Shown: positions 22,811 to 51,781, counted from the first letter of the stretch. The stretch is 64,000 nt of DNA from an uncultured Candidatus Rokubacteria bacterium (GCA_963747235.1 CAVVEU010000008.1:448001-512000), one strand, 5' to 3'. Numbers and translations: made by a program. Notes: generated by a model not told the origin, from the sequence alone.

Positions 22811-23735
22811 CGCCGGTCGCCCGAGCAGGTCCAGTTCGCCCCGGAGGACGACGTGCCGATCCGGTACATGGATCGGACGCGTGAGTACTACCAGGCGCTC
22901 GGCTTCGCCCCGTACCGCTGGGCCCACTTCACCGACGCGCCGTTCACGCCGCTCGCCATGCCGCTCGCGCGGGCCCGGGTCGCGCTGATCACGACCGCGG
23001 CGCCCGTTCCAGCCGGAGGCCGGCGACCAGGGGCCGCGCGCGCCGTACAACGCGGCCGCGAAGTTCTACCAGGTGTACTCGGCGCCGGTGGACAGCAAGC
23101 CCGATCTCCGCATCTCGCACGTGGGCTACGATCGGGCGAACACGGTGCCCGAGGACCTCAACGCCTACGTTCCGCTGGCCAGGCTGCAGGACGCGGTCGC
23201 GGCGGGACGGATCGGCAGCCTGACCCCGCGCTTCCATGGCGCGCCGACGAATCGCAGCCACCGGGTGACCATGGAGACCGACGCCCCCGAGCTGCTGCGC
23301 CGCTGCCGGGAGGACGGCGCCGACGCGGTCGTCCTCGTCCCGAGCTGACCGGTCTGCCACCAGACCGTGGGTCTGGCCGCCCGGCACCTGGAGGCGAACG
23401 GCATCCCGACCGTGATCATGGGCTGCGCCAAGGACATCGTGGAGCACTGTGGCGTGCCGCGCTTCGTGTGGAGCGACTTCCCGCTCGGCAACTCGGCCGG
23501 GCGGCCCTTCGACGTGGAGTCCCAGGCGCAGACGCTCGAGCTGGCCTTCCGGCTGCTCGAGACCGCGCCGGTGGCCCGGACCACGGTGGCGTCGCCGCTC
23601 CGCTGGGCCGCGGACGCGGCGTGGAAGCATCGCTTCCTCGACGTCGGGAAGCTCTCGCCGGAGGCCATCGCGGAGCGGCGGAAGGAGTTCGACGTGGTGA
23701 AGGCGGTGGCGAAGGCCAAGCGCGAGGGCGCGTGA
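22807..23735 (+). CDS. PrdB/GrdB-family reductase selenoprotein B; in-frame TGA 23346-23348 read as Sec (indels near 22815 and 23003)
   Basis: PFTPL...RVALITTAA, ISHVGYD, DLNAYVPLARL, DGADAVVLVPS-U-PVCHQT, LEANGIPTV, DFPLGNSAGRP; the ORFs either side of the TGA are in the same frame and both match D-proline reductase PrdB. Confidence 0.85.
23360..23376 (+). promoter_or_regulatory. Candidate bacterial SECIS hairpin of the PrdB-like gene
   Basis: CCAGACC-GTG-GGTCTGG perfect stem starting 11 nt after the UGA, with G in the apical loop. Confidence 0.7.
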
Positions 23736-28632: not shown

Positions 28633-29388
28633 CGCTTCGCGCCCGCCGCGGCGCGGTCCATCAGGTCCTTCGCGCCGGCCTGGATCCACGGGAAGAAGCT
28701 GGTCATGATGCAGCGCACGCCCTTGCGCGTGTAGCTCTCCACGTTCGCCGAGCTGACCAGGGTGCCCGCGGTGCGCCCCGCCTGCACGATCTTGGCGATC
28801 GCCCCGTCCACCGTCTTCTGGACCTCCGGCTGCGTCATGTTGCCGATGTGGCCCATGGAGGTGGCGAGGTCGTTCGGGGCCACGAAGAAGACGTCGATGT
28901 GGTCCACGGTCAGGATCGCGTCGAGGTTGTTCACCGCCACGATGTCCTCGATCAGGACGATGAGCAGGCTCTGGTCGTTGGCGGTCTTGAGGTAGTCGCC
29001 CACGCCGAAGCCCTGGCGGCTCGTGAACATGCCGCGCTTGCCGAGCGGGGCGAACTTGGCGCCCTCCACCACCGCCTGGGCCTCCGCGCGGGTGTTGACG
29101 TGCGGCACGACGATTCCCTGCGCCCCGCGGTCGAGCGTCCGGTAGATCGTGGCGTAGTCGTTGTCCATCACGCGCACCACGCTGGTCACGTCCCAGAGGT
29201 CGCAGGCGCGGGTGAGGTTGCCCAGGTCGCGCGTAGTCCACGCCGCCGTGCTCGCCCTCGAGCCAGATGCCGTCGGCGCCCAGCGGCCCGAGCTGGTCGA
29301 TCAGGTCCGGATCGTTGGTGCCCGACAGGATGGTCGCCACCTGGCCCGCGGCCAGCCGCTGCTTCACCTTGTTCGCTCGGATGCTCAT
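28629..29388 (-). CDS. HpcH/HpaI aldolase family protein (frameshift near 29232)
   Basis: NKVKQRL, WLEGEHG, LDRGAQGIVVPHV, APLGKRG, LIED, FVAPNDL. Confidence 0.9.
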
Positions 29389-29410
29389 GGGATCGTCCTC
29401 TCGTGTCGGG

Positions 29411-30236
29411 TTAGGGGCGGGGCAGCGCGTCGCCGAGCATGCGGCCGAACACGACCATCTCGGGACTGGTCTTGCGATACGTGTCGAGCGCGGCCAGCAC
29501 CTCCGTGAACTCGGCGGCGGGCGGCATCGCGGGTGCGGCGGGCAGCGACGGCAGGGTGGCGAACACGCGCGGGATCTCGGCATCCACCGCGGCCAGGAGC
29601 CGCTGGCCGGCCGCGCGCGTGGCCGCGTCGTCCAGATGCGGCCGCAGCACCGTCGCCACGTGGGCGAGGAAGGCGGGCCACGACGGCGAGCATCCGGTAG
29701 AGCCCCGGGACGAAGACCTGGCCGGCCACGGTGGTGCCGAGCGTGGCCAGCACCGCGCGCTGGGCGGGCGGCAGCGCGGCGGGATCGGCGAGGGCGGGTA
29801 GCGGGCCGATCGGCGTCGGCGGCGTCCAGGCCGGCGCGCCGTTGCGGGCGCCGGTCGGGCGATCACCGGTCAGGATTCGCCGCAGCAGACCCGACAGCAC
29901 GAGGTTGACCGGGCTCACGCGGACGAAGCTCGCGCAGGTCGCGCGGATCGCCGCCTCGCCGGCCGCGTCCACGCCCCACACCGCGAGCGCGTCGCGCGAG
30001 AGCGGCGCGAGCCGGGGAACCGCGAGGCCGTCGGCGGCGCGCCAGGCCGCGGCCTGCGCGACGCCGCTCGTGAAGGCGGGGCCGAGCGCGGTCCACGTCC
30101 ATTCGAGCCAGCCCGGCCGCGTGGCCAGGTGGCGCTGGAGCGAGGAGACGTACGGCACGCCCCAGAGGCGCCGGATCTGCTCGTAGATGCCGGCGATCTC
30201 GCCGGTGGCATCGCTCTCCCGCAGCTCGGCCAGCAT
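29411..30236 (-). CDS. DehI/AhpD-like two-repeat helical protein (frameshift near 29685)
   Basis: ESDATGEIAGIYEQIRRLWGVPYV...RHLATRPGWLEWTW, with an internal repeat VPGLYRMLA.WPAFL. Confidence 0.5.
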
Positions 30237-30245
30237 CGCGCCGCC

Positions 30246-33162
<2,917 letters not shown>

Positions 33163-36443: not shown

Positions 36444-37269
36444 ATGCCGACCACGCCCCGGCCGATCTCGCTCGCGCACCTGACCGTGCTGGACACGACG
36501 CCCCCCGAGCTGATCACGGTGGCGGCCGCCGCGGGCTTCCGGACCGTCGGCATCCGCCTGACCGCGACGCCGAGCGTGGGCGTCCCGCCGTACGACGTGC
36601 TGCACGAAGGCCCGATGCTGCGGGAGACCCTCCTGCGCTTGAAGGACACCGGCGTCTCCGTGCTCGACACCGAGTTCCTCCGCTTCGAGCCGGAGCACCC
36701 GATCGGCGTCCCGGAGGGCTTCCTGGAGGTCTCGGCGCGGCTGGGCGCGAAGCACGTGCTGGTCATGAGCGCCGAGCCGGAGGAGGCGCGCACGCTCGAG
36801 CGCTTCGGCGAGCTCTGCGACCGGGCGGCCCAGTACGGCCTGTCCGTCGGCCTGGAGTTCGCGGTCTACACGGGGGTCCGCACGCTCGCCCACGCCGCGC
36901 AGATGGTCGCCCAGTCGAAGCGGGCGAACGTATCGGTGGTGGTGGACGCGCTCCACTTCAGCCGGTCGGGCGGGCTTCCGGCGCACATCGGGCAGGTGGA
37001 TCGCGGCGCTGTTCCGCTACGCGCAGATCTGCGACGCGTCGGCCGACATGCCCGGGCCCACCGACACGCCGAACCTGATCCGCGAGGCGCGGACCGGGCG
37101 GCTGCTTCCGGGTGAGGGCGTGCTGCCGCTCCGCGAGCTGGTGGCGGCGCTCCCGGCCGGTATTCCCCTGGCGATCGAGGCGCCCTCCCGGGCGACCGCC
37201 GATCTGCCCGCGCTCGAGCGGGCCCAGCGCGCGTACCGGGCGCTGTCCGCCCTGCTGGCGCTGCGCTAG
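36444..37269 (+). CDS. Sugar phosphate isomerase/epimerase TIM-barrel protein (frameshift near 37005)
   Basis: SLAHLTV, GLEF, VDALHFSRSGG, YAQICDA, RLLPGEG. Confidence 0.85.
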
Positions 37270-38203
37270 CTGATCTCGACCAGCTCCAGGGCCTCGCGGC
37301 TCGGCCCCTCGATCATCACCGCCCGCGTGTCGCCGAGCGGGTAGGGCTCCTCGAGGAACCGCACGCCCTCGCCGCGCAGCTTGGCGACCCAGGCGTCGAG
37401 ATCGGTGACGCTCAGCGCGATGTGATCGTAGAGCTGGCCGCGCGTGCTCGCGAGCGGCCGGTCACCCTGGCGCACGTACCAGGGCAGGGCCACGTCGCCG
37501 AACACGACCGCGGCCGAGGGCGCCCGGAACATCCCGTCGCGATCCAGCGCCGGCCAGCTCCGATCGGGCCCGCGCGGCACCGTGCAGGTGGACTCGGTCA
37601 CCGGCGCGCGGCTGGCGCGCCCGGCATAGACCGGCGCGTTGAGATGGGTCTGGTACCAGAGCTGCGCGCAGAACGGATCGTCCTGGTAGAGGTGCACGTG
37701 GTTGAAGCGCTCGGCCGGGTGATTGCCCGCGTACTCCACGAGGGCGTCGTCGGGGCCGCGCATGTAGCCGAAGCCGCCGCTGCGGGTCGGCTCGGCGCCG
37801 GCGGCCCGCGCCTCGGCGATCTGCGCCTTCGTGAGCCCGGGCGTGGGTCCCTTGCTCGGCCACGTATCGCTGCTGACGAGGACCGACCCGCCTTCGTCTG
37901 TCGTGTAGAGCGGCAGGAGCTCGAGGTCGGGCCGCGCCTCGAAGGTCCGCGAGGCTGGCCCGCGTGTCCGGCACGTGCCAGCCGAAGTGCCAGATCGCGG
38001 TCTGGGGTGACGTGGCGGGCGGGGTCGCGACCCGGGTGAACAGGACCAGCACGTCGTTCGGCGCCGCGAGCGCCGGCCAGGCCGGCCCAGCGCGTCTTCG
38101 CGGAGGTCGGGAAGTGCCGGACGTAGAACTCGATCGCGGCGTCGGGGTCCACCGAGTTCAGGTGGAGATGGTGGAAGCCCGGGGCGGGAAGCATCTCACC
38201 CAT
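37266..38203 (-). CDS. VOC/glyoxalase family protein (frameshifts)
   Basis: FHHLHLNSVDP, IWHFGWHV, FNHVHL, YDHIALSVTDL, IEGPSREALELVE. Confidence 0.8.
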
Positions 38204-38833
38204 CCTCGCCGGCCTCCGCGGCCTCGGCCTTGGCCTGCTTCACGAGCTGCTCGATGACTTCATAGGGCTGCGCGCCCACGACGCCGCGGTGGCCCGCGAC
38301 GAAGGTCGGCACGCCGGTGATGCCGTACTGGCGCGAGAGCGCCCAGTCCCGGTCCACCGCGTCCTTGAACGTGCGCTTCTCCAGGACCTCGCGCGGCGCC
38401 CGCGACGGGCAGCCCCACCTCCGCCACGATCTCGAGGAGCACGGCCGGCTCGGAGATGTTGCGCGCGTCCACGAAGTAGGCGCGGAACATCGCGTCGTGG
38501 AAGGCCTCGCCGCCCGGCTGGGTGTCGGCCCACTTGCCCAGCTCCTGGGACAGGCGGCTGTTGTAGGTCATGGTGCGCTCGCCGTAGGGGAGGCCCTCGG
38601 CGTCCATGCGCGCCTTCATCTGCGCGTGCATGGCCTTGCGGTCCACGTTGCGGCCCCGGAAGAGCTCCTCGAGCGACTGGCCTTCCGCCGGGGTCTCCGG
38701 GTGCAGCGGGAAGTGCACCCACTCGATCTTCACGTTGTGCTCGACGCCGGAGCTTCTCAATACGCACGGTACTGAGATAGCACCAGGGTCAGACGTAGTC
38801 GGAGAAGACCTGGAGCGTGATGGGCTTGGTCAT
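38196..38833 (-). CDS. DsbA/FrnE-family thioredoxin-fold selenoprotein; in-frame TGA at 38791-38789 read as Sec (further indels near 38745 and 38400)
   Basis: RBS AAGGAGG; MTKPITLQVFSDYV-U-PWCY matches the FrnE SDxVCPWCY motif; FPLHPETP, AYFVD..NI, GITGVPTF, GAQP. Confidence 0.85.
38756..38776 (-). promoter_or_regulatory. Candidate bacterial SECIS hairpin of the DsbA-like gene
   Basis: Minus strand CTCAGTAC-CGTGC-GTATTGAG (8-bp stem with one G-U), starting 12 nt after the UGA. Confidence 0.7.
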
Positions 38834-39797
38834 GTTGCCTCCTTGACGAGCTTCTGCAGGCTTCGCAGGCCGGGCGGAATGCGGCTGGCCCTTGTAGCGA
38901 TTGCCCCAGTTAGTGTACGACACCTCGCCCACGTAGATGTCGCCGCGCGAGTCCACCGCGAGGCCGTGCGGGGAGACGAACTGGCCGGGCTCGAGGCCCG
39001 CGAGGCGGTCGCCGAGGCGCGCCAGCCGCTCGCCCCGATGACTGTAGATGCTGACCCGCGGGCCGATATTCGGGCACGTCGTAGTTGACGGGGAGCGCGC
39101 CGCCGATCTCGCCCACGTAGAAGCGGCCCTGGCCGCCGCGCTCCATGAAGAGGCCCGAGGGGCGGTGCATGTCGTGCCACTGCGTCTCGAACCGGCCGTT
39201 GCCGTCGAAGACCTGGACGCGGTGGTTCTCGCGGTCGGCCACGTAGACCCAGCCGTCGGCGTCACAGCAGATGTTGTGCGGGATATTGAACTGGCCGGGA
39301 TCGGTGCCGGGCTCGCCCCACGACGAGAGCAGGGTGCCGTCCGGCGCGTACTTGTGGATGCGCGCGTTGCCGTAGCCGTCGGAGACGTAGAGATCGCCCC
39401 GCGGCGAGAGCGCGGTGTGCGTGCAGCGATGGAACGGCTCGCCGCTCATGTAGGGCCGGGGCTTGCCGGGGATCCCGATGGTCAGGAGCACCTTGCCGTC
39501 GAGCGTGCAGTGGCGAACCGTGTGATCGCCGTCGTCGGTCAGCCACAGGGTGTCGTCGGGCGCCACGTGGACGCCGTGCGCGCGGTGGAAGACGCCTTCG
39601 CCCCAGGAGCGGAGGAAGTTGCCCTCGCGGTCGAGCACGACCATCGGGTGGGCGCCGCGGTTGAAGGCGTAGACCTGGTCCCGCGCGTCCACGCCGACCG
39701 CGGCCACGTCGGCGTTGAACTCCTGGCCCGGCGGCAGCTTGGCCCAGCGGTCGTCCACCCGGTAGCGATAGGCGCCGGTGCCCAGGATGGCCGGCAT
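38830..39797 (-). CDS. NHL-repeat beta-propeller protein, peptidyl-alpha-hydroxyglycine amidating lyase-like (frameshifts)
   Basis: VYAFNRGAHP, SWGEG..RAHG, YVSDGYGNARIHK, GQFNIPHNI, YVADRENHRVQVFD, PHGLAVDSRGDIYVGEV. Confidence 0.85.
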
Positions 39798-40751
39798 CAG
39801 CTGCTCCCGGGCCGCGCGCCTCGAAGATCGCGCGCGGGTTGCCCACGAGCATCTGCTGGATCTGCTCCTCGGCGACGCCCGCCTTGCGGAGCGCGGGCAG
39901 GATGTCGTCGGGGATGTGGTTGTAGTTCCAGAGCGGCCGGGTCCGGCGCTTGTCGTCCTCGGAGAGCATGTCGCTCCAGCAGTTGGCGTCGTGCGAGAGG
40001 ACCATGCGCCCGGCGTAGCCTTCCGCGCACAGGCGGGCGATGACCTCGACCCGCTTGGGCGTCGGCAGGAAGTGCTCGAGGCCGAAGCGGTCCATGCCGA
40101 TCGTGCTGCCCCGGTCCATGAGCCCGCGGAGGTAGCCCAGGTCCTCGCTGTCGCCGCTGTGGCCGATGATGACGCGGCGGAGATCCACGCCCTCCTGGGC
40201 GAAGATGGCCTGCTGCGCCTCGCCGGTCCGGCCCGCGGCCCAGGTGTGGGTCGAGATCGGCACCCCGGTCGCCTTCTGGGCCCGCGCGGAGGCGCGCAGG
40301 ATGTTCTCGATGACCGGGGTCACGCCCGCGGTGTCGGTGGCGCACTTGATGATGGCGGCCTTGACGCCGCTCGTCCCCGATGCCCTGCGGTGATGTCGCG
40401 GACGAAGAGATCGGCCACCGCGTCCACCCCGTGGCCGCTGAAGTACCGCTGCGGCATCCACCAGACGCCGGTGGCCACGATCACGTGGACGCGGGAGCGG
40501 CGGGCCACGTCCAGGATCAGGCCGATGTCGCGGCCCAGGTCCACGGTGGTCAGGTCCACGATCGCGCGGATGCCGCGCGCGTGGAGATCGGCCATCTTCC
40601 GCTCCGCCATCGCGAGGATGCCCGCGCGGTCCCAGAGGTGCGGCCAGTTCTCCTGCACCCCGGGCGAGCGGGTGACGATGTGCTCGTGCATCAGCGTGGC
40701 GCCGAGCTCGGCCGTGGCCACCGGCCCGAGGGCTGTCTCCACCGTGGTCAT
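39797..40751 (-). CDS. Phosphotriesterase/lactonase (Php) family protein (frameshift near 40380)
   Basis: [40 protein letters not shown]. Confidence 0.9.
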
Positions 40752-40762
40752 GCTGAGTTCTC

Positions 40763-41933
40763 CTATCCCGCGACCGCGCGCACGAAGCGCTCGACCTCGG
40801 TCTCGTCGTTGTAGTAGTGGACGCTGGCGCGGACCAGCGCGTCGAAGCCGCGCGCGGGCAGGTCGAGCCGCGAGGAGCGGGCCTGGGTGTGGGTGACGTT
40901 GATGTCCAGGGCCCGGAGGCGCCGGCGCGTGGCCTCCGGCGCCTCGCCCGCCTTGAGAAAGGTCACGATCCCGCACTGCTCGACACCCAGGTCGTGGACG
41001 GTCACGCCCGGCCGCTTCGCCAGCTCCCGCCGCAGCAGGGCGGCGAGCGCCTTGACGCGGGCCTCGATGGCCTCGATGCCCAGCGCCAGCGCGTAGCGCA
41101 CCGCCACCGCGAGGCCGATCTGGCCGGCCACGAAGCGCTCCCAGTTCTCGAAGCGCCGGGCGTCGTCGCGGAGCGTGTAGGTGTCGGCGTCGATCCAGGC
41201 CGCGGCCTCGAGATCGATGAAGGGCGGCTCCAGCGCGCCGATGGTGTCGCGCCGCACGTAGAGGAAGCCGGTGCCGCGCGGGCCGCGCAGGTACTTGCGC
41301 CCGGTGGCCGAGAGCATGTGGCAGCCGATGTGGCGGACGTCCACCGCGAGCTGGCCGACCGACTGGCAGGCGTCGAGCAGGTAGAGGATGCCGTGCCGCG
41401 CCGCGACCCGGCCCACCGCCGCGGCCGGGTTCACGAGCCCGCCCTGGGTCGGGCACGTGGGTGATCGCGATGAGCCGGGTGCGCGGCCGGATCGCGCGCT
41501 CGAGCGCGGCCACGTCGAGCTGCCCGGAGGCGTCGTCGTCCACCACGTCGATCTCGACGCCCGCGCGCCGCTTCATCTGGAGGAACGCGAGGTAGTTGGA
41601 CGCGTACTCGGCCCGCGCGGTGATGATGCGGTCCCCGGCGCGGAAGGGGATCGCGTAGAAGGCCATGTCCCAGGCGCGGGTCGCGTTCTCCACGAACGCG
41701 ATCTCGTCCGGCCCGGCGCCGATCAGCGCGGCGACCGCGTCGTAGACGTCGGCGATCCGGTCCGCGGCCTCCGCGGCGGCCTCGTAGCCGCCGATGGCCG
41801 CCTCGCGCTGCAGGTGGCCGATCACCGCGTCGAGCACCGGGCGCGGGGACAGGGCTGCGCCCGCGTTGTTGAAGTGCAGGACATTGGCGACGCCCGGCGT
41901 GTCGGCTCGGAGGCGCGGCACGTCGAGCGTCAT
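40763..41933 (-). CDS. Aminotransferase class V PLP enzyme, SufS/EgtE-like C-S or C-Se lyase fold (frameshift near 41452)
   Basis: [43 protein letters not shown] (PLP Lys), RASVHYYN. Confidence 0.88.
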
Positions 41934-42691
41934 CGCGCGCAGACCTCGAGCACCGGCTCCTCCGCGCGTACCGACGCCAGGACGACCGAATGGATCGCGG
42001 GCTCGCGCAGGAGGCACTCGGCCGTCTCGCGCGCCGGGGCCCGATCCGGGAGCGTGTCCACCTTGTTGATCAGGACGATGACGCGGGCGCCGGCGGGCAC
42101 GCCCTTCCGCCCGCCATCGGGATGGGCCAGGACCCGGGCCACGATCGCGGGGGTCACGCGTGCCCCCATCGGCGCGCCGCTGAGCGCGCTGACGAGCTCC
42201 GGCCGGTGCACGTGCTCGGCGTCCAGGGGTGCGCCGAAGACGTCGGCGCCGACCACGGGGACGACGAGGGTCGTCTCCGGCGGGATCACCGGCTCGTAGT
42301 CGGCCGGAGCCTTGAAGGGGCGCATGCGCGAGCCGTCGGCCTCGTTCAGGAGGCACACGTCCGGGAACCAGGCGCGCAGGCGCCGGAAGAGGTCGAGGGA
42401 GACGCCCTCGGCCTTGCCGCTGCCCGCCTCGGTCGGGCCGATGACGAGCACGTGCCCGTGGGCGGCCAGCGCGGCCGCGACGCGCTCCCGCGTCGCGTCG
42501 GCGGCGGGGACGTGGGCGGGCGCCAGCGCGATCTGCGCGCCGAAGATGCGGGTGGTCGTGGTGGTGATCGCGCGCCCGCCGCGGTCCACCATCTCGCGCG
42601 CCAGGCGAAACATGGCGGTGGTCTTCCCGCCGCCGCCCACCAGCGCGACGCTCTCGTCCGCCGTCATCCGGAGCGCGTCCGCCAGCGTCAT
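41930..42691 (-). CDS. yqeC: Selenium cofactor biosynthesis / Se-dependent hydroxylase accessory protein YqeC
   Basis: [56 protein letters not shown]. Confidence 0.85.
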
Positions 42692-44877
42692 CGACGCGCG
42701 CGGAAGCGGTCCAGGACATTGCGCAGGATGCGGGAGACATTGTTGTCGTAGCGGTTGTGCGACAGGCTGCCGCAGAAGGTGATGGAGCCCACCGCGAAGA
42801 CCGCGCCGCCGCCGGGCAGCTCGGCATAGGTCATGTCGGCCCGCAGGAGCCGGGCGGGCTTCTCGCCGGTGACCGTCGCCAGGTGCGAGAGCAGCTCCTC
42901 GGGCACCACGATGAAGCTCGGGCCGTGGCCCTCGGAGCTGGCCACCACGATGGCGCCCGCGGGCGTGCCGAGCGCGGGGTCCGCGCGGTCGAGCTCGAAG
43001 CCGGCCGCGCCGCCGCCCGAGAGGCCGAAGTCGCCGATCACCGCGTCCGTGACGCCGTCGAGGATCCAGGCCGCCTTCGGATCGTCCGCGCCGGGCTGGC
43101 GGCGATAGTACGAGCCCTCGAAGAGCCCTTGCCCGGAGAAGCCCACCGCGCCGATCCGCTGCGGCGGGCGCCCGTTGCGGCGCCAGAGGCCGCCGTAGGC
43201 GCCGTCGAGCGCGTGATAGTACTCGCCGGTCTGGGCGTCCCACGCCCGGATGCCGCCCTCGGCGCGCCGCACCTCGATGACGCCGGGCACCGCCGGGCTG
43301 GTGGCGATGCGCCAGTAGAAGCCGTTGCCGCCCAGGTAGACCAGCTTGCCGCCGCCGTCGAGATAGCCCTGGTGGGCGTCGAGCGTGCGCGCGGTGTGGT
43401 ACTCGGGGTGCGAGCCGGTGAGCACGGTCGCGTACGGCGCGAGCAGCGCCGCGCCCTCGGCCTCCACGTCCTCGTCGGTGACGACGTCGTACCGGATGCC
43501 CTGCATCTCGAGCCAGTCGAGCAGGTGGGTGTCCGCCGAGTAGTGGCGCAGGCCCGAGCCGCGCGCGTCGAAGAACGTGAGATAGCGGGGCCGGAACGTC
43601 AGCACGGGGCGCAGGCGCGACGAGTAGCAGATGCCGCTGCCGTCCCGGTGCCGGTTGTACGTGGACCAGCCGTAGTCGGGATGGCTGTCCGGGGTGTGGG
43701 GCGTGGCGCCCCACGCGGCGACCCGCTCGCGGTACGCGGCGTCCGTCGAGCCCCGCGCATGATTCGCGTAGGCCTGGTAGGTGTAGGTGGACGCGATGTA
43801 GAGGACGTCCGCGCTCGGGCGGCCGAGCGGCGGCCGCACGTAGAACGGCAGGTCGTCGGCGTGGCCCTCAGCGGAGAGGCGCATCAGGTAGGCGCCGCTC
43901 GGCAGGTCGTCCGGCACCGTGAGCTCGAAGTCGGTGGCCCATCCCGCGTCGTGGACGTCGTCGTCGTGGAAGTGGATGGCCGCGTACTCGCGCGGGGCGT
44001 GGCGCCAGCACATCTCGCGGCCCGTCCAGCGCGCCCCGGTGACCGCGCGCGTGGGCAGGTTCACGAGCCGCCCGCCGAGGCGATGCGGGCCCACGTCGGC
44101 GACGTCGAGCCCGTCGATGCCCCGGGAGAAATCCCAGCCCGCGATCAGATCCGCGGGCGGGAGCAGGGGATCGAGGACCAGCGTCTCCGGCGCGGCCGTC
44201 GCCGCGGCGAGCAGCAGCGGGTCCTCGATCTTGCCGTTGTAGTGCTCGCGCGCCTCGGGCGCGAGCCGCGCGCCGATCAGCAGCGGCGCCGCCGTGTCGA
44301 GCCGGGCCGCCGGCGGCAGCGGCGCCGACGCTTCCTCCCGGCCGCCGCCGGTGAGCGGAGCGTGGCCGACGCGCAGCGTGCCCGCGGCCGGATCGGCCAC
44401 GAGCCAGATCCGCTGCCACTGCCGCAGCGGAAGCGCCTGGCGGGTGGTCACGGTGATCGGCGCGCCGCCCGGCGCGCCGACGCGCGCGGTCACACCGCCG
44501 GGCCCGAGCGACAGGGCCCAGCCCGCCCGTCCGGTCTCGTCCCAGCGCGAGATCACGCACTGCTCGCGCCGGGCCGCGTAGGTCGGCCAGACCAGGGCGG
44601 TCACGGTGAGTGGCCCCGGCGTGCGCAGGGCCGCCGCCCCATCCACGCGCACGTAGGAGCCCTGGGCGAGCGGCTGGACGCGGGAGGGGCGCTCGATCGA
44701 GAACCGCGCGGCGAGATCCTCGATCTTCACGCCGGGCCCGGCCGGGTTCGGATCGGCGTGGATGACGCGCGCGAGGCTGGCGCGGTACGGCCCCGCCGCC
44801 GCGCTCGAGACCTTGAAGGCGATGCGCTCGCCGGGCGCGGCGGAGAGCCGGTCGCTATAGCCGGTGAGCGGGATCAC
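42688..44877 (-). CDS. N,N-dimethylformamidase large (beta) subunit family protein
   Basis: GYSDRLS, LamG-like domain, [52 protein letters not shown]. Confidence 0.88.
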
Positions 44878-46226
44878 TTACGCGAGGAACTGCTCGCACA
44901 CCTCGAGCCAGGCCTGGGTGGTCAGGGCCAGGGATTCGACGTCGATGCGCTCGTCGTTGCCGTGGAAGCGGCCGGACATCGCCTCCGCGGTCAGCGTGCG
45001 CGAGAAGAGCCCGAAGCCGTAGGCCACCGCGCCCTTCTCGCGGAAGTAGGGCGCGTCGGTGAAGCCCGACGATCATCTTGGGCAGGAGCTTCGCGCCCGG
45101 GTAGTGCGCGTCCACCACGCGGCCCAGCACGTGCCAGAGCGGGGTCCCGGTGGGCGACATGGACGCGGGCTTGGAGAAGAGCTTCTCGACCTCGATCTCC
45201 TCGGCCAGGCCGCCCAGGGCCTTGTCCAGATGCCGGCGCACCTCGTCCTCGTTGTCGCCGGGGACGGTGCGGATGTCCACCTCGACGTCCACCGCGTCCG
45301 GGATCACGTTGGTCTTCACGCCGCCGTGGCAGACATTCGGCGAGAACGTGGTGTGGGTGGCCGACCACGAGAGCTTGGCGAGGGCGGGCGCGAGGCCTTC
45401 GATCGCCTCGTCCACGCGCGAGGGATCGGCGAGGGCTTCCTTCACCGCGGGGTCGAGGTGGAGCGTGTCCACGAAGGCCCGCCACAGCTCGTCGACATAG
45501 GGCGAGGGCCGGTAGTCGGCCAGGCGGCTCACCACCTGCGCGGCCTTGACCAGGGCATTGTTCGCGCCGTAGGGCATCGAGCCGTGGCCGGGCGTGCCCT
45601 TGACGCGCAGGCGGCGCCAGGCCACGCCCTTCTCGCCCACGTGCACGGTGACGTTGAGCTCGTCGCCCTTGGCTCCCGCGGCTCACGGTGCCGCCGTTCT
45701 CGGTCAGGCAGTAGTCCGCCTTGAGCGCGTCCCAGTGCCGCTCGACCACGTGCCCGGCGCCGAGGGTGCCGCCGGCCTCCTCGTCCGCGCAGGCCAGGTA
45801 GACCAGCGTGCCGCGCGGCCGCCAGCCGCGGCCGGCCAGCGTCTTGAGCGCGACGGCCTGCGAGGCGGTGAGGTTCAGCATGTCCACCGCGCCGCGGCCC
45901 CACACCTCGCCGTTGACGAGCTCGCCGCCGAAGGGATCGCGCGTCCAGGTCTTGGGGTTCACCGGCACCACGTCGGTGTGGCCCATGAGGCACAGCGTGG
46001 GCGCCTTCGGGTCGCTGCCCTCGATGCGGGCCACCAGGCTCGCGCGCCCCGGGGCGTGCGCGGGCTCGTAGACCTCGAGGTCGAGGCCGCTGCCCTCGAA
46101 ATAGCTGCGCAGCGTGTCGCTGTTGCGGGTCTCCTGGCCGGAGAGCAGGGTGCCGTCGTTCACGCACTGGTTGCGGATCATCTGCTGCAGCAGCTCCACC
46201 GTCTGTCCGGTCAGGGCATCGCTCAT
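44878..46226 (-). CDS. M20/M25/M40 metallopeptidase, ArgE/DapE-like (frameshifts)
   Basis: MGHTDVVP, VWGRGAVDM, ADEEAGG, GHGSMP, NVIPD, FHGNDERI. Confidence 0.9.
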
Positions 46227-46237
46227 GGATCGGTATC

Positions 46238-47077
46238 CTAGCCAGCGGGCGCGGTCTTGTCGAGGGGCCGCTCGAAGACCGCCTGGATCGAGACGAGGCG
46301 GTCCTCGTCGCGGTTGCGATGGCCCACGCGGATGATCTCGTCGATGGCGTCGCCCATCACGAGGCGCTGGATGCTGTGCGCGGGAATGCTGGCCGCGGTC
46401 GGCGGGCCCGCGGTCTCCGCGGTCACGTCGTCCCACGCGCGGAGGCGGAAGCCGGCGCCCTCGATCACCGCCTGCATCTCGGCCGGCGTGCGCAGGAAGG
46501 TCGTGGAGGCATCGCGCGCCCACATCACCGGGTAGAGCAGGGGCTCGACCGGGCCGGCCATCGGCTCCTGCAGCGCCAGGAGGCCGCCGGGCCGCAGCAC
46601 CCGGTGGAAGCCCGCGTAGAGGCGCTCCTTGTCCGCGATGCTCATGCCGCTGTTCTGCGTCCACACGAGATCGAAGGTCTCGTCGGGGAAGGGCAGGGCC
46701 AGCGCGTTGCCGATGTGATGGCTCACCCGATCGTCGAGGCGCATCCGCGTGGTCAGCGCCTGCGCGGCGCGCACGTAGGAGGCGGTCAGGTCCACGGTCG
46801 TGACGAGGCAGCCGAACTCCACCGCCAGCGTGCGGGCCGGGCCGCCGAATCCGCCGCCGACGTCGAGCACCTGCATGCCGGGCGCGGCCCCGGCGAGGCG
46901 CGCGAGCCGGTCGGTGGCGGGCTTGCCGCCCCCGTGGAACTGGTCCACCGGCGCCACGGTGTCGGGCGTGAGCGCGTCGAGATCGGCGCCCCGCGCGGTG
47001 AGGGCGGCCAGGATGGCCTCCGCGAGGTTCTCGCGGCCCCAGTAGGTGTCGATCGTCCGCGGGTCGAGCTCGGGCAT
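46238..47077 (-). CDS. Class I SAM methyltransferase (sarcosine/dimethylglycine N-methyltransferase-like)
   Basis: DQFHGGG, VLDVGGGFGGPAR, LPFPDETFD, RVLRPGG. Confidence 0.85.
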   Translation of the reverse strand: MPELDPRTIDTYWGRENLAEAILAALTARGADLDALTPDTVAPVDQFHGGGKPATDRLARLAGAAPGMQVLDVGGGFGGPARTLAVEFGCLVTTVDLTASYVRAAQALTTRMRLDDRVSHHIGNALALPFPDETFDLVWTQNSGMSIADKERLYAGFHRVLRPGGLLALQEPMAGPVEPLLYPVMWARDASTTFLRTPAEMQAVIEGAGFRLRAWDDVTAETAGPPTAASIPAHSIQRLVMGDAIDEIIRVGHRNRDEDRLVSIQAVFERPLDKTAPAG

Positions 47078-47078
47078 G

Positions 47079-47915
47079 TCAGGAGGCGAGCGTGGCCATG
47101 CGGTCGAGGAAGGGCAGCGCGTCGTCGAGACGGCGCGGCGCGACCATGGTGACGCGCGCCACGCCCAGGTCCTCCATGCGCCTCACCGCGTCGGGCGTGG
47201 GCGGCTTGAAGGCGAAGACCGAGACGGCGAGCTCGTCCGGCCGGCGGCCCGCGGCCTGGGCCTTCTGCCGGAGATCGGCGATGGCGGCGGGGAGATCGTC
47301 CAGCAGCACGTCGATCGGGATCCAGCCGTCGCAGTACTCCACCACGCGCGCGCGGCCCTGGGCGGTGGCCCCGCCGAACAGGATCGGCGGATGCGGCGTC
47401 TGGACGGGCTTGGGGAACGAGATCGCGCGGTCGAAGTTGACGAACTCGCCGTGAAACGACGCCTCCTCCTGCGTCCAGAGCGCCTTCATGGCCAGCACGC
47501 GCTCGCGCAGGACGCGCCACCGCGCGGCGAACGGCGTGCCGTGATGCTCCATCTCCTCGCGGTTCCAGCCGCCGCCGATGCCGAAGAGCACGCGGCCGCG
47601 GGAGAGCCAGTCGAGCGTGGCGACCGCCTTGGCCAGCACGATGGGGTCGTGCTCGACCACGAGGCAGATGCCGGTGCCGAGCTTGATCGTCCGCGTCGCG
47701 GCCGCGGCGGCCATCAGCGAGACGAACGGATCGGCCATGTGGTAGTACGGCTTGGGCAGCGGCTCGCCGCCCGGGTAGGGCGTCTGCCGGGCGGCCGGGA
47801 TGTGGGTGTGCTCGCCCACCCAGAAGGACTCGAACCCGCGGTCCTCCGCGGCGCGGGCCAGCTCGTCCGGCCGCGCGCCGTACTCCACGTTGTAGCTGAA
47901 GACGCCGAGGTGCAT
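47079..47915 (-). CDS. LLM-class (F420/FMN-dependent) oxidoreductase
   Basis: GFESFWVGEHTHIP, DPFVSL, GIGGGWNREEMEHHG, PKPVQTPHPP. Confidence 0.9.
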   Translation of the reverse strand: MHLGVFSYNVEYGARPDELARAAEDRGFESFWVGEHTHIPAARQTPYPGGEPLPKPYYHMADPFVSLMAAAAATRTIKLGTGICLVVEHDPIVLAKAVATLDWLSRGRVLFGIGGGWNREEMEHHGTPFAARWRVLRERVLAMKALWTQEEASFHGEFVNFDRAISFPKPVQTPHPPILFGGATAQGRARVVEYCDGWIPIDVLLDDLPAAIADLRQKAQAAGRRPDELAVSVFAFKPPTPDAVRRMEDLGVARVTMVAPRRLDDALPFLDRMATLAS

Positions 47916-47934
47916 CGCCGGCTCCCGGCCGCGC

Positions 47935-48945
47935 CTACCGGCCCCGCCGCACGCGCCCGGGCGCGTAGACCTCGGGGTTGACCACGTTGATCGGGCGCTC
48001 CTTCAGCAGCAGGCGGGCGATCTCCTCGCCGCAGCGCTTCGGCACCTGGGCCACCGCGGGAGAGGAGAAGTAGGCCGCGTGCGGCGTGAGGATCACGTTG
48101 TCCATGCGGCGGAGCGGGCTGTCCGCGGCGAGCGGCTCCTCCTCGAAGACGTCGAGCGCCGCGCCGGCCAGCTTGCCCTCCTGCAGCGCGCGGACGAGGG
48201 CGCCCTCGTCCACCACCGGCCCGCGCGAGGTATTGACGAGGCACGCGGTGGGCTTCATGCGGCGGAAGAAGGCCTCGTTGATCAGGCCGCGCGTCTCCGC
48301 GTTCAGCAGCGCGTGGACCGAGACGTAGTCCGCCCGCGCGGCCAGCGTGGGCAGGTCCACGCGCTCGACGCCGAGCGTCTTGAAGCGGGCGTCGTCCACG
48401 TAGGGGTCGCAGGCGATCACGCGCGTCTCGAGCGCGGCGATCCGGCGGGCGAAGGCGCTGCCGATATTGCCGAGCCCGACGATGCCCACCGTCTCGCCGT
48501 GGAGCGAGCCGGTGACCGCGCCCGGGACCCGCGAGCTCCACGTGCCGGCGTGCACCTCGCGGTCGAGGGTGACGATCTTGCGGTTCCAGGCCAGCAGCAG
48601 CGCGAGGGCGTGGTTGGCGACCTCGCGGATCCAGATGTCGGGCACGTTGATCACCACCACGCCCAGCTCCGTCGCGGCGGGCACGTCGATGACGTCGTAG
48701 CCCACGCCGGTGCGCATGACCGCCTTGACGCCCTCGAGCGCCTCCATCACGCGGCGGGTGACCGGCGAGGACGAGATGATGAGCGCGTCGGCGTCGCGGG
48801 TGCGCGCGATCACCTCGTCGGCGTCGCCGATGAAGGGCAGCGAGATCATCTGGGCGGGCACGCGATCGAGCGCGGTCTGGCAGTCGGCGTAGTCGCGCTC
48901 GCCGCGGCCCTGGATGACGTACACCTTGAACGGTCGGTCGGCCAC
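47935..48945 (-). CDS. D-2-hydroxyacid dehydrogenase (CtBP/SerA-like)
   Basis: GVGYD, GLGNIG, VNTSRGPVVDE, ALDVFEEEP, TPHAA. Confidence 0.92.
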   Translation of the reverse strand: MADRPFKVYVIQGRGERDYADCQTALDRVPAQMISLPFIGDADEVIARTRDADALIISSSPVTRRVMEALEGVKAVMRTGVGYDVIDVPAATELGVVVINVPDIWIREVANHALALLLAWNRKIVTLDREVHAGTWSSRVPGAVTGSLHGETVGIVGLGNIGSAFARRIAALETRVIACDPYVDDARFKTLGVERVDLPTLAARADYVSVHALLNAETRGLINEAFFRRMKPTACLVNTSRGPVVDEGALVRALQEGKLAGAALDVFEEEPLAADSPLRRMDNVILTPHAAYFSSPAVAQVPKRCGEEIARLLLKERPINVVNPEVYAPGRVRRGR

Positions 48946-48983
48946 TGGTCTCTCCGTCGGAATGGGGTGTCGGTCAGAATCGG

Positions 48984-49746
48984 TCAGAATTGGCCGTGGC
49001 GGCCGGCGCCGGCCGCGAAGCGCCGCGCGCCCGCCTGGCTCTCGCCGGTGTCGTGCGTGGCCTTGCCCAGCCTGAACTCGTTGGCCATGGCGGCGGGCAG
49101 GGGCAGGCCCGCGCTCTCCCACGCGGAGCGCCGGTCGCTGCGCACGCAGTGCGGCGGGAAGGCCGCGATGTCCCGCGCCAGCGCTTCCGCCTCGTCGCGG
49201 GCCCGGCCGGCCGGGACCACGCGATTGGCGAGCCCGAAGCCGAGGGCCTCCCGGGCGTCCACCGGGCGGCCGGTCAGGATCATGTCGAGCGCGCGCGACA
49301 GGCCGATCAGCTGGCGGCAGTCTGACCGTGCCGCCGTCGAGCAGGGGCACGCCCCAGCGCCGGCAGAAGACCCCGAAGATCGCGGTGTCGCCGGCCACGC
49401 GCAGATCGCACATCAGCGAGAGCTCGAGCCCGCCCGCCACCGCGTGGCCCTCGACGGCGGCGATCGTCGGCTTCGTGAAGGCCATCCGGGTCGGGCCCAT
49501 GGGTCCCGGGCCCTCCGGCGACAGGGTCAACCCGTTCCCGGTCCCCCGCGCCTTGAGATCCGCGCCCGCGCAGAAGGTGCCGCCCGCGCCCCAGAGCACG
49601 GCGACCCGCAGGGCCTCGTCCCGCTCGAACTCCTCGAAGGCCTCGATCAGGGCCCGCGCCGCGGGCCCGTCCACCGCGTTCCGGGCCTCGGGGCGATCCA
49701 TGACGATCGTCGCCACCATGTCGCTTCGCTCGATCCGAATGGCCAT
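48984..49746 (-). CDS. Enoyl-CoA hydratase/isomerase family protein (frameshift near 49315)
   Basis: RPEARNAVD, FCAGADL, AVAGGLEL, CRRWGVPLLDGGTVRL, GAGRHG. Confidence 0.9.
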
Positions 49747-49869
49747 TGGGTCTCCTCGTGCCGGTCGCGGCCCCGGACGAATCTACCACTTCACCTGGGC
49801 CTCTTTCACAACGGCTCCCGGCCGGGGTCTCACGCGAAAGAAGCGAGACCCATCACCCGGGAGGAAGCC

Positions 49870-50319
49870 ATGAGCGAGAAGGCCACGATGTTGCGGGACG
49901 CGGACCTGGCGTTCGGGGAGCTGCGGGGAGCGATCGACGGGCTGACCGACGAGGACATGCGCCGGGTCTGGCTCGGCACCTGGGGCGTGCGCGAGATCCT
50001 GATCCACATCTCGGGCTGGCACGACGAGATGGCCACCGCGCTCGGCCGGGTCGCGAAGGGGGATGCGCCGTACCCGAAGGGGACGTACGATGACTTCGAT
50101 GCGTGGAACGCGCGATTCGTGGACCAGAAGGCGGGCGTGAAGAGCGCCGACGTGGTGGCCGAGGTGGAGACCTCGCACCGCAAGCTGCTGGCCGCGGCCG
50201 CCGCGCTGCCGGAGGCGCTCTTCGCCGCGGACGGCGCCGCGCGGGGCCCGTTCGACGGGGCCGGCGCCGGGCACTACCGCGAGCACACGGAGCAGATCCG
50301 TCAATGGCGACAGGGCTAG
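49870..50319 (+). CDS. DinB/ClbS/DfsB-like four-helix bundle protein
   Basis: WGVREILIHISGW, FDAWNARFV, HYREH. Confidence 0.75.
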   Translation: MSEKATMLRDADLAFGELRGAIDGLTDEDMRRVWLGTWGVREILIHISGWHDEMATALGRVAKGDAPYPKGTYDDFDAWNARFVDQKAGVKSADVVAEVETSHRKLLAAAAALPEALFAADGAARGPFDGAGAGHYREHTEQIRQWRQG

Positions 50320-50887
50320 CAACCGGCTTCGCGCTCTTCGACACCGCGATCGGCGCGTGCGGGATCGCGTGGAACGGGCGCGGGATCGCGGGCGTGCAGC
50401 TTCCGGAAGGGAGTCCGCCCGAGACGCGGGCCCGGCTGCGGCGGCGCTTCCCGGAGGCGCGCGAGGCGCCGCCGCCCGCGCCGGTGCGGCGGGCCATCGA
50501 CGGCGTGATCGCGCTGCTCCGGGGTGAGCCGTGCGAGCTCGACACCGTGACGCTCGACATGGACGGGGTGCCGCCGTTTCATCGGCGGGTGTACGAAGTC
50601 GCGCGCACGATCCCGCCCGGCACGACGCTGTCCTACGGGGAGATCGCGGCCCGCATGGGCGAGCCGGGCGCCGCGCGCGACGTGGGGCAGGCGCTGGGCC
50701 AGAACCCGTTCGCGATCATCGTGCCGTGCCATCGCGTGCTCGCCGCCAATGGCAAGGTCGGCGGCTTCTCCGCGCGCGGGCGGGGTCAGGACCAAGCTCC
50801 GGCTGATCTCGAGCGAGCGGGCCGGGGGACACGGCGCATTGCCCCTCTTCGGGGGCGGCCACGGACGACCGGCCCCCGTCGCGCTAG
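50304..50887 (+). CDS. ogt: Methylated-DNA-[protein]-cysteine S-methyltransferase (frameshifts near 50780 and 50853)
   Basis: FDTAIG, IPPGTTLSYGEIA, ARDVGQALGQNP, IVPCHRV. Confidence 0.88.
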
Positions 50888-50911
50888 GCCGTCGCGTGCT
50901 AGACTCCCGCC

Positions 50912-51781
50912 GTGCACATCGGCGTGGTGTTCCCGCAGGTCGAGATCGGAGTGGATCCGGGCGCGATCCGTGACTACGCCCAGGCGGTCGAGGCGATGGG
51001 CTACACGCACATCCTCACCTTCGACCACGTGCTGGGCGCGAACCCCGAGCGGCCCGGCGGCTGGAAGGGCCCGTACACCTACCGCCACGCCTTCCACGAG
51101 CCCTTCGTGCTCTTCGGGTTCCTCGCCGCGGCCACCCGCCGCGTGGAGCTGGTCACCGGGATCCTGATCCTGCCCCAGCGGCAGACCGCGCTCGTGGCGA
51201 AGCAGGCCGCCGCGGTGGACGTGCTCTCGGGCGGGCGGCTGCGCCTGGGGGTCGGGGTCGGCTGGAACGCGGTGGAGTTCGAGGCCCTCGGCGAGCGCTT
51301 CACGAATCGCGGGGCGCGCATCGAGGAGCAGATCGCGGTGCTGCGCGCGCTCTGGGCCCGCGACCTGGTGACCATCGAGGGCCAGTGGCACCGGGTCACC
51401 GACGCGGGCCTCAATCCCTTGCCGCCGCGGCCGACGATCCCGATCTGGATGGGCGGCGAGAGCGAGCCCGTCGTGCGCCGCGCGGCGCGGCTGGCGGACG
51501 GGTGGATGCCCCATTTCCGCCCGGGGCCCCCGGCGCAGGCCATCGTGGATCGGCTGCACGGCCTGATCCGGGAGGCCGGACGCGACCCCGCGGCGTTCGG
51601 GATCGAGGGGCGCATGACGCTGGCGCAGGTGCCCCCCGACCAGCGGCCGGCCGAGCTCGCGGCATGGCGCGCGATGCGAGGAATCACGCATCTTTGCGTC
51701 CACACGGTGGGACTGGGCTTGAAGACGCCGGCCGAGCACGTGCAGGCCCTCGAGCGCTTCAAGAAGGACCTGCTGACCTAG
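50912..51781 (+). CDS. LLM-class (F420/FMN-dependent) oxidoreductase
   Basis: IGVVFPQ, FDHVLGA, FHEPFVLF, LPQRQTALVAKQAA, GVGWNAVEFEALG. Confidence 0.9.
   Translation: MHIGVVFPQVEIGVDPGAIRDYAQAVEAMGYTHILTFDHVLGANPERPGGWKGPYTYRHAFHEPFVLFGFLAAATRRVELVTGILILPQRQTALVAKQAAAVDVLSGGRLRLGVGVGWNAVEFEALGERFTNRGARIEEQIAVLRALWARDLVTIEGQWHRVTDAGLNPLPPRPTIPIWMGGESEPVVRRAARLADGWMPHFRPGPPAQAIVDRLHGLIREAGRDPAAFGIEGRMTLAQVPPDQRPAELAAWRAMRGITHLCVHTVGLGLKTPAEHVQALERFKKDLLT

Follow-up and report, generated by a model that had tools for sequence, protein, structure and literature searches.

An optional yqeC gene in a hydrolase operon with a predicted selenocysteine-containing DsbA in an uncultured Rokubacteria bacterium

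Of the ways in which selenium (Se) is used, the least understood is as a labile ligand of certain molybdenum (Mo) hydroxylases, and yqeC is one of the two genes that mark it. What does such a gene do in an operon of hydrolases that also encodes a DsbA-family protein with an apparent selenocysteine (Sec) codon? The question is raised by a stretch of 64,000 nucleotides (the window; GCA_963747235.1 CAVVEU010000008.1:448001-512000, on contig C8 of the source genome G000, hence G000:C8:448001-512000) from an uncultured bacterium of a soil family in the phylum Methylomirabilota, or 'Rokubacteria'. Eight genes on its minus strand, at 37266-46226, include yqeC, a class-V pyridoxal-phosphate (PLP) enzyme gene and dsbA. 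The initial annotation saw in them two Se-utilization traits joined in one unit, perhaps an undescribed route of Se salvage or trafficking, or else a YqeC whose client is not a molybdoenzyme. The reading that we favour, and to which we give slightly better than an even chance, is that of a modular catabolic operon in which yqeC is a passenger whose product serves Mo hydroxylases encoded elsewhere in the genome. As a 'selenium operon' the locus looks mostly ordinary, made up of known families in a linkage that resembles lineage-specific synteny.

Since the G+C content is ~72%, most long open reading frames (ORFs) in the window are spurious; genes were traced by third-position G+C (GC3) and Pfam matches on the 45 stop-to-stop frames of 40 or more codons found on the minus strand between 37200 and 46300. 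Pfam pieces and a tblastn map against intact orthologues give the following order, from the promoter-like element downstream; insertions and the deletion are single bases, taken up further below, and lengths are in amino acids (aa).

46235-46263, minus strand: promoter-like element, -35 TCGACA, 17-nt spacer, -10 TAGGAT
44878-46226, minus strand: M20/M25/M40 metallo-amidohydrolase of the ArgE/DapE/aminoacylase type, 448 aa in an intact relative; insertions at 45677 and 45068
42688-44877, minus strand: DMFase large-subunit-family (acylase-like) protein, 729 aa, with a LamG-like N-terminal domain; frame intact
41930-42691, minus strand: yqeC, 253-aa SIMIBI-class P-loop NTPase (GGGGKT, EADGS); frame intact, ATGA overlaps at both ends
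40763-41933, minus strand: class-V PLP enzyme, SufS/EgtE/C-DES-like, 389 aa in a relative; insertion at 41450
39797-40751, minus strand: hydrolase of the phosphotriesterase (PTE) family (PHP / PTE-like lactonase), ~317 aa; insertions at 40390 and 40372, deletion near 39800
38830-39797, minus strand: NHL-repeat beta-propeller, 321 aa; insertions at 39075 and 38881
38196-38833, minus strand: FrnE-type DsbA-family thiol oxidoreductase with U-P-W-C; insertions at 38746 and 38394
37266-38203, minus strand: VOC (glyoxalase/dioxygenase superfamily) protein, 311 aa in a relative; insertions at 38077 and 37946

The M20 stop codon directly abuts the GTG of the acylase-like gene (gap of 0 nt); the acylase/yqeC and yqeC/PLP junctions are each an ATGA with a 4-nt overlap; the PLP and PTE genes are separated by 11 nt containing GGAG; PTE and NHL overlap by 1 nt (TGATG), NHL and dsbA by 4 nt (ATGA, with AAGGAGG ahead), and dsbA and the VOC gene by 8 nt. 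The promoter-like element is the sole sigma-70-like site in the 14.4 kb from 36800 to 51200 (one found against 0.2 expected from shuffles). It is kept in 10/10 aligned loci of nine genomes, one of which reads TACGAT, and in four of these nine genomes the upstream methyltransferase gene ends earlier, leaving the element in a 46-50-nt spacer. Gene order is shared, at 83-93% DNA identity, with eight loci of relatives. These junctions of 0-11 nt or overlaps, the conserved promoter-like element and the gene order in relatives together argue that this is a genuine, promoter-led and translationally coupled eight-gene operon. Because the -10 hexamer ends 8 nt upstream of the M20 ATG and no Shine-Dalgarno sequence is present, a leaderless or near-leaderless M20 start is suggested. 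A scan of 36800-51200 detected no terminator-like site after the operon, which converges on a plus-strand gene, and no Rfam family matched anywhere in the window at the gathering threshold. The initial annotation had already described eight minus-strand genes coupled by overlaps or gaps of 0-11 nt, with a candidate promoter at 46235-46240; all junctions agree, these positions match the -10 of the conserved element, and all eight gene families that it named are present by Pfam.

The first of the two Se markers, dsbA, stands up well. From its ATG at 38833 the gene reads MTKPITLQVFSDYV-TGA-PWCYL, and two features define the recoding site.

38789-38791, minus strand: in-frame TGA, read as selenocysteine
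38756-38776, minus strand: hairpin resembling a selenocysteine insertion sequence (SECIS), 8-bp stem CUCAGUAC / GUAUUGAG, 5-nt loop, beginning 12 nt 3' of the UGA

In an alignment the TGA, read as Cys, falls opposite the leading Cys of FrnE's CPWC motif (5cnw, 80 bits), and TGA occupies this position in 28/28 genomes from two families. The hairpin has a folding energy of -25.4 kcal/mol (z -3.96). Over 30 loci with 11 distinct sequences, seven of the nine tested pairs are invariant, one changes from U-A to C-G in a compensatory manner in two of the 11 sequences, and the outermost (ninth) pair is broken in three; covariation is thin since the sequence hardly varies. The 40 nt 3' of the TGA are nearly invariant, and codons ending in T are kept there despite a genomic GC3 of ~0.95. 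No Rfam family matched the hairpin, and none of the NCBIfam selenoprotein models reaches its cut-off for the window DsbA. Elsewhere in the genome, tRNA-Sec (C14:45384-45481), selA (578 bits) and selB (365 bits), the latter two above their cut-offs, lie together on contig C14, and selD is present twice. The assignment of the TGA as a Sec codon, and of DsbA as a selenoprotein, as the initial annotation had it, is well supported by sequence comparison, because the TGA recurs in 28/28 genomes, the hairpin carries a compensatory pair, and tRNA-Sec, selA, selB and selD are all encoded.

Sec-DsbA is already known in kind: as far as the available parts of the sources go, DsbA-like proteins with UxxC are tabulated among prokaryotic selenoprotein families (PMC1794560, PMC13188914). 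The window protein shares with DsbA-like selenoprotein form 1 (PF01323, UxxC) the DSBA fold, U at the first position of CPWC and a hairpin after the UGA. FrnE of Deinococcus radiodurans (5cnw) is its Cys counterpart, to which it scores only 80 bits, and Sec would take the place of the attacking Cys of CPWC. Unlike the known DsbA-like selenoproteins, it is encoded within an operon of hydrolases, where its gene is the seventh, and the function ascribed to it is predicted. An orthologue with the Sec codon, hereafter DsbA(U), occurs in 80/159 genomes of the family, and in the sister family f4 it is found without any other operon gene. A literature search for selenoproteins of Rokubacteria returned no related paper in the material that could be viewed.

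It is important to point out that selenoproteins are common in G000, so that the presence of one close to yqeC is no more than a mild surprise. A crude genome scan gave 121 in-frame TGA candidates, 17 of them with a Cys within four residues (UGSC-type, AhpD-like CxxU and PrdB-like among them). A second selenoprotein candidate lies in the window itself.

22989-23735, plus strand: two adjacent ORFs without Pfam match (119 and 128 aa), joined through an in-frame TGA at 23346-23348, motif PS-U-PVCH

The read-through product matches the D-proline reductase PrdB / GrdB-type 'selenoprotein B' model at 89 bits against a cut-off of 300, and a paralogue with TP-U-PFC is present on contig C29.

The second marker, yqeC, is a different matter. 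Its identity is not in doubt: the product scores 183.2 bits to TIGR03172 (cut-off 73) and 136 bits to PF19842 (cut-off 27.6; profile positions 1-145), and it has in common with the YqeC of the Se-dependent Mo-hydroxylase trait (yqeB-yqeC-ygfJ of Escherichia coli, EF2563-EF2564 of Enterococcus faecalis) a score above the equivalog cut-off and the GGGGKT and EADGS motifs. Across the genus, DsbA(U) is encoded in 16/20 genomes and yqeC in 7/20. Four congeners carry the operon without it (loci L095-L098): MT-M20-acylase-PLP-PTE-NHL-DsbA in G001 (L095; 100% complete), MT-M20-PLP-PTE-NHL-DsbA in G002 (L096; 100%), MT-M20-acylase-PLP-PTE-NHL-DsbA-VOC in G008 (L097; 84%) and MT-M20-PTE-NHL-DsbA in G007 (L098; 93%). 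A search of these four genomes found no yqeC anywhere, and in a further genome, G020, the gene has been partly deleted in frame, with only its first 95 codons left. The VOC gene was not found at the operon locus of G005 and G020. The stable backbone in the genus is thus M20, PTE-like lactonase, NHL propeller and FrnE-type DsbA, and the acylase-like gene, yqeC, the PLP gene lacking the catalytic Cys (see below) and the VOC gene are cassettes that vary between species.

At a wider scale, PF19842 is found in 52/251 genomes of the phylum and in 49/158 of the family. By hand count, DsbA(U) is encoded in 44/50 yqeC-positive and in 36/109 yqeC-negative family genomes; the tallies include G116 and G233, which are flagged as unpublished and are DsbA-positive and yqeC-negative, and without them the latter figure is 34/107. 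The proposed joining of two Se traits is a weak reading in view of this distribution: yqeC is missing from the operon in four congeners and from 36 genomes with DsbA(U), and is partly deleted in G020. In other genera an HpcH-type aldolase gene usually precedes yqeC, and genes for PTE, a decarboxylase-like protein and NHL follow, with DsbA(U) 1-9 kb further on; scattered among these are genes for beta-lactamase-fold, luciferase-like, PhyH, amidase and transporter proteins. Only in genus g1 and at L024, L064 and L065 does the PLP gene come after yqeC. Between PTE and NHL a gene of ~330-350 aa without Pfam match is inserted at L057, L059, L062, L066, L067, L072, L108-L110, L114, L117 and L119; once considered as a further propeller, this ~340-aa product is 4,5-dihydroxyphthalate-decarboxylase-like by its match to 9jp7 (120 bits). 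The window operon has neither the HpcH aldolase nor the decarboxylase-like gene, and an HpcH fragment and an amidase gene are located elsewhere in the window, at 28632-33162. At L060 (G137, genus g20), genes for a UGSC-family protein and Thioredoxin_9 (3624-4970 and 6977-7609) lie ~4 kb from yqeC in place of the PTE-NHL-DsbA set.

Where, then, does this YqeC come from, and with what does it usually travel? When species-representative genomes were scanned, 80 yqeC loci came up: 12 belong to the Rokubacteria type (identity of 67% or more; five of these were already in the set of loci compared) and 68 are others. The 12 have HpcH in seven cases, PTE in seven, the decarboxylase-like gene in six, NHL in four, DsbA in four, the PLP gene in two and a piece of a Mo hydroxylase in four. 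Among the 68, from Chloroflexota, Bacillota, Thermodesulfobacteriota, Acidobacteriota and more, the flanks, of up to 10 kb, include a Mo-hydroxylase large subunit or XdhC in 35 cases; none has the PLP gene, NHL, DsbA or HpcH in its flanks, and one has a distant PTE. In a quick maximum-likelihood tree, for which SH-aLRT is the only support measure, the Rokubacteria YqeC clade (10 rows, SH-aLRT 99) nests inside Chloroflexota sequences, and its successive sisters, L116 and L118, are each located just downstream of a Mo hydroxylase. Within the family, the yqeC orthologue at L061 (78% identity) overlaps the beginning of a gene for a Mo-hydroxylase large subunit, after which come CoxG and a 2Fe-2S subunit, and in another class the yqeC of L070 adjoins XdhC.

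YqeB is largely absent from this setting. No match to TIGR03309 was found in G000 (88% complete), and yqeB exceeds its cut-off in 6/159 family genomes and in 0/21 of the genus. The family holds two YqeC lineages, as judged from their sequences, of which only the divergent type of genus g56 appears paired with YqeB. At the g56 locus (L068, on G236:C78) a YqeC with 37% identity to that of the window lies 4.5 kb from a yqeB scoring 341 bits (G236:C78:23804-24568), amid genes for an enoyl-CoA hydratase, an AMP-ligase and a LigB dioxygenase. The operon and the 64-kb window contain no gene of the Mo-hydroxylase, XdhC or MocA type. The genome has them outside the window, with 33 MoCoBD_1 matches (~22 Mo-hydroxylase genes) and XdhC at two loci. 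The initial annotation was thus right that yqeB, selD and Mo hydroxylases are not in the window; yqeB was not found in the genome search, selD lies on C27 and C8, and the ~22 Mo-hydroxylase genes are elsewhere. On C27 the selD product (46033-46945, L104) carries, as a fusion at its N-terminus, a pyridine-nucleotide-disulfide oxidoreductase domain (TIGR03169). Directly next to the gene are those for the large and FAD subunits of an xdh-like Mo hydroxylase, and DsrE, TrxR-TusA and Redoxin are encoded nearby; this is plausibly a Se-dependent Mo-hydroxylase locus, far from yqeC. After the second selD (C8:303114-305601, at ~303 kb; L105) comes a GT4 glycosyltransferase gene. Its product scores best, though below cut-off, to the 'GPMC system family 4' model (346 bits, cut-off 400), and SenB is rejected as its identity (89 bits, cut-off 300).

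The initial annotation expected that its proposal would fall if the linkage were unique to this genome and yqeC orthologues sat with yqeB or xdh in relatives. The two halves came out differently. The linkage is not unique, as yqeC lies near PTE, NHL and/or dsbA(U) in six genera, and orthologues beside xdh-type genes do exist (L061, L116, L118).

The picture that emerges is of a YqeC lineage that appears ancestrally tied to Mo-hydroxylase and XdhC genes. It most likely still serves at least one of the ~22 Mo hydroxylases whose genes lie elsewhere, with yqeC merely co-expressed from a catabolic operon. Hydrolytic and lyase enzymes of the operon probably degrade an amide- or lactone-containing compound, possibly N-acylated or (hetero)aromatic. 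The aldolase, decarboxylase, lactonase, VOC gene and occasional Mo hydroxylase seen in other genera are hints of a predicted role in aromatic or N-heteroaromatic breakdown, in which a Mo hydroxylase often acts first. Like the known Se-dependent Mo-hydroxylase trait, G000 carries selD and many Mo hydroxylases; unlike it, G000 has no detected yqeB, the operon has no Mo-hydroxylase, XdhC or MocA gene, and yqeC is dispensable.

Several points weigh against a passenger yqeC in a catabolic operon. There is no Mo-hydroxylase gene within the window to which YqeC could be assigned. In six genera (g1, g20, g22, g23, g32 and g57) the distance from yqeC to PTE, NHL and/or DsbA(U) is 10 kb or less, in several of them with PTE directly after yqeC, and in the window yqeC is translationally coupled on both sides. 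DsbA(U) and yqeC are associated across the family (44/50 against 36/109), an association that is inflated by kinship and does not exist within genus g1. The substrate suggested here is guessed from the names of the protein families. Finally, the literature, as far as the accessible text of PMC11448449 goes, gives no client for any YqeC, and the same source reports that deletion of yqeC in Clostridioides difficile had no phenotype.

The Peptidase_M20 and M20_dimer domains of the first gene are recognized by Pfam in separate frames; its best model is PRK07906 (276 bits against a cut-off of 382), it stays below every equivalog cut-off, and a PDB sequence search at E ≤1e-20 gave no match. It was also considered, and rejected, as an orthologue of YgeY (68.9 bits against 321). 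The second gene, annotated at first as 'DMFase-beta', does belong to the DMFase large-subunit family, sharing with 8huy and 6lvb a full-length match and the DMFA2_C domain (318 bits in Pfam), but matches N-acetyl-(R)-beta-phenylalanine acylase (8huy, 814 bits, E 1e-243, residues 1-727) more closely than DMFase (6lvb, 477 bits). No NCBIfam model matches it, and a literature search on a link between beta-phenylalanine acylase and DMFase turned up nothing useful in the portions of text available. The PTE (PF02126) is recognized as pieces of 174 and 75 bits in two frames, compared with 268-280 bits in an intact relative. Its nearest structure is 4if2 ('phosphotriesterase homology protein', PHP; 312 bits), with SsoPox-type lactonases at 221 bits and 2vc5 at 217 bits, and with both 4if2 and SsoPox (2vc5) it has a whole-length match and the H-x-H/Lys/His/His/Asp positions in common. 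The HxH, K137, H170, H199 and D256 are invariant in 20 orthologues; these we take to be the metal ligands, all six of which are kept. Assignment as an OPH or PHP equivalog was rejected (197 against a cut-off of 500 and 138 against 486). The only enzyme among the solved relatives of the NHL propeller is peptidyl-alpha-hydroxyglycine alpha-amidating lyase (PAL; 3fvz, 77 bits), the other solved matches being TRIM NHL domains. In the VOC protein the Glyoxalase domain is confined to the C-terminus, and no solved relative was found in a PDB sequence search at E ≤0.01; a 165-aa ATG ORF was discarded as the VOC gene, which runs from 38203 to 37266 and encodes 311 aa in an intact relative.

The alternative that survives best, though we consider it unlikely, is that the client of YqeC is local, with YqeC depending on NTP to help mature or assemble the PTE-type binuclear-metal enzyme or another product of the operon, instead of, or in addition to, Mo hydroxylases. 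In its favour are the adjacency of yqeC and PTE at L057, L059, L062, L063, L072, L108, L109, L114 and L119, the ATGA coupling of yqeC in the window, the presence of DsbA(U) in 44 of the 50 yqeC-positive genomes, and the scarcity of yqeB (6/159 in the family, 0/21 in the genus). The protein model can be read either way. YqeC, modelled from 73 sequences with a pLDDT of 97.4, is predicted to be a SIMIBI-class nucleotide-binding protein and so shares its fold class with the metallocentre GTPases UreG and HypB (VIA-align Z 10.4 and 9.8; MeaB 8.9). The top matches, however, are SRP/FlhF GTPases, FlhF reaching a Z of 13.3 and the best Foldseek match to FlhF/SRP GTPases a moderate TM of 0.47. The residues invariant in YqeC are G19, G21, G22, K23, M27, E117, D119, G120, K127, E133 and R163, and no Cys or His is invariant among the 73 sequences, which speaks against a local client; G3E metallochaperones use Cys/His. 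At least four congeners keep PTE, NHL and DsbA(U) without yqeC; outside the family the context is Mo hydroxylase or XdhC; and all loci come from a single bacterial family, so that shared ancestry can explain much of the synteny. A complex prediction for PTE with YqeC scored 0.00 and 0.00 against a mark of 0.32; it was run without controls and provides no evidence either way.

A bolder version, which we regard as decidedly improbable, is that an orphan YqeC lacking YqeB, derived from or shared with Chloroflexota, has been recruited away from Mo hydroxylases and now drives, by means of NTP, the maturation of some enzyme belonging to the PTE - NHL - Sec-DsbA neighbourhood. By analogy with UreG and urease, it might for example assist in assembling the carboxylated-lysine binuclear centre of PTE. 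If recruitment were true, YqeC would be a general cofactor- or metal-centre chaperone rather than a Se-specific one.

Less probable again is the Se salvage or trafficking unit of the initial annotation, in which Se released from an organoselenium compound by the PLP lyase would be reduced or carried by Sec-DsbA and delivered by YqeC. Two Se-associated markers do stand within one operon, and yqeC adjoins the PLP gene in four genera (g1 and those of L024, L064 and L065). The genome is rich in selenoprotein candidates (17 Cys-proximal in-frame TGA codons in the crude scan), and a NifS-like Sec lyase and an M20 hydrolase are encoded near yqeC in E. faecalis (PMC2276186 and bioRxiv 10.1101/2020.02.07.939272, in the parts available). 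What makes the model weak is that neither the lyase nor YqeC has a relay Cys, and that the operon and DsbA(U) are widespread without yqeC, with DsbA(U) alone in family f4. The catalytic-loop Cys of cysteine desulfurase 6wci (...GQHCAHP...), on which a perselenide would form, aligns with THTQARSS in the window enzyme, and this Cys is missing from 30/30 loci of 14 genomes; YqeC has no conserved Cys. The lyase remains below the cut-offs of SufS (178 against 475), SclA (84 against 525), the EF2568 family (115 against 377) and EgtE (160 against 400), all of which were rejected as identities. It shares its fold group with the cysteine/cystine C-S lyase C-DES (1elq) and with EgtE (8irk), which presumably also do without the mobile-loop catalytic Cys of SufS and NifS. 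Unlike these two, it scores nearer to true desulfurases, with 159 bits to 6wci compared with 95 to 1elq and 81 to 8irk. The operon also has no selD, no yqeB and no transporter of a Se-linked type, and the second selenoprotein candidate in the same 64-kb window lessens the surprise of finding one near yqeC. No genes for ergothioneine or selenoneine were seen near the operon, and the idea of the second selD and its glycosyltransferase as SenC/SenB, with the lyase as an EgtE analogue, was dropped on the glycosyltransferase score (89 bits against the SenB cut-off of 300).

The comparison with E. coli and E. faecalis deserves a closer look. In the accessible text of PMC2276186 and bioRxiv 10.1101/2025.04.24.650524, the E. 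coli ygeW-ygfM and E. faecalis EF2563-EF2582 clusters form a purine-catabolic, Se-linked region that includes genes of a 2,8-dioxopurine pathway. Near yqeC this region encodes, as far as those sources can be followed, an M20 hydrolase (YgeY), the amidohydrolase-superfamily proteins SsnA/HyuA and a PLP enzyme, the same classes as in the window; the E. faecalis version, again in the portions available, also holds a NifS-like lyase. Unlike that region, the window operon has no xdh, ygfK, yqeB or selD, and none of its genes is orthologous to those of the region. Published work on YqeC and selenium, in the sections that could be viewed, contains no description of yqeC beside a Sec-DsbA. According to the available part of PMC5029168, only YqeB and YqeC occurring together mark the Se-cofactor trait, and YqeC alone does not.

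Six of the eight reading frames are broken in this assembly, by 12 single-base indels, namely the 11 insertions at the positions listed above and the deletion near 39800. The initial annotation mentions neither these breaks nor the extent of the VOC gene nor the missing terminator-like site. They were called against six orthologous congener loci with 90-93% DNA identity, in which the genes are intact (M20 448, PLP enzyme 389, PTE 316, NHL 321-322 and VOC 311 aa). Only the acylase-like gene (42688-44877) and yqeC (41930-42691) have uninterrupted frames; the M20 domain is split over three frames, the class-V aminotransferase domain over two, PTE over two, NHL over two, DSBA over three and VOC over three. 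Ten insertions are unique to the window; the remaining one, at 38077, recurs in the closest relative, G013, alone. The same kind of damage recurs throughout G000, where both selD copies are split, into two and three frame pieces, and ~9 of the ~22 Mo-hydroxylase genes are split as well (C8:303114-303868, C24:795425-796145 and C33:219314-220041 are examples of split genes). Within the family, marker completeness is low where contigs are few (G000, 42 contigs and 88%; G013, 30 and 88%; G148, 30 and 66%; G174, 4 and 62%), and many-contig assemblies reach 100% and carry the genes intact. Because gene splitting is genome-wide and completeness is low in the few-contig assemblies, the 12 indels are most likely assembly errors rather than decay, judging from sequence comparison, and the 88% completeness of the 42-contig G000 is probably an underestimate caused by frameshifts. 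A search for the sequencing runs gave 21 soil, sediment or bog runs, each holding at most 0.41 of the sampled words. The least probable reading of all those considered here is that the frameshifts are real and mark a recently inactivated pseudogene array in which only the acylase-like gene and yqeC function: it is favoured, against assembly error, by 0/12 indels in the 2.95 kb of these two genes (41930-44877) where ~4 would be expected under an even spread (Poisson P ~0.02 at an even rate) and by the presence of insertion 38077 in G013, but runs counter to the splitting of both selD copies and ~9 Mo-hydroxylase genes in an organism that clearly depends on Sec, to a GC3 of at least 0.9 on either side of every break, to the lack of stop-codon substitutions and larger deletions, and to the low completeness of few-contig assemblies, which fits indel-prone long-read assembly.

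Overall, the Rokubacteria operon brings to light a whole YqeC clade without YqeB, located outside Mo-enzyme clusters, as an optional cassette of a hydrolase operon. The clade supports the published caution, in the part of PMC5029168 available, that YqeC alone marks no Se trait. Natural pairs of operons with and without yqeC among close relatives provide material for testing the role of YqeC. The FrnE-type Sec protein, encoded in half of the family genomes surveyed (80/159), offers in turn a clean, testable case of Sec in place of Cys in a cytoplasmic enzyme of the DsbA family.

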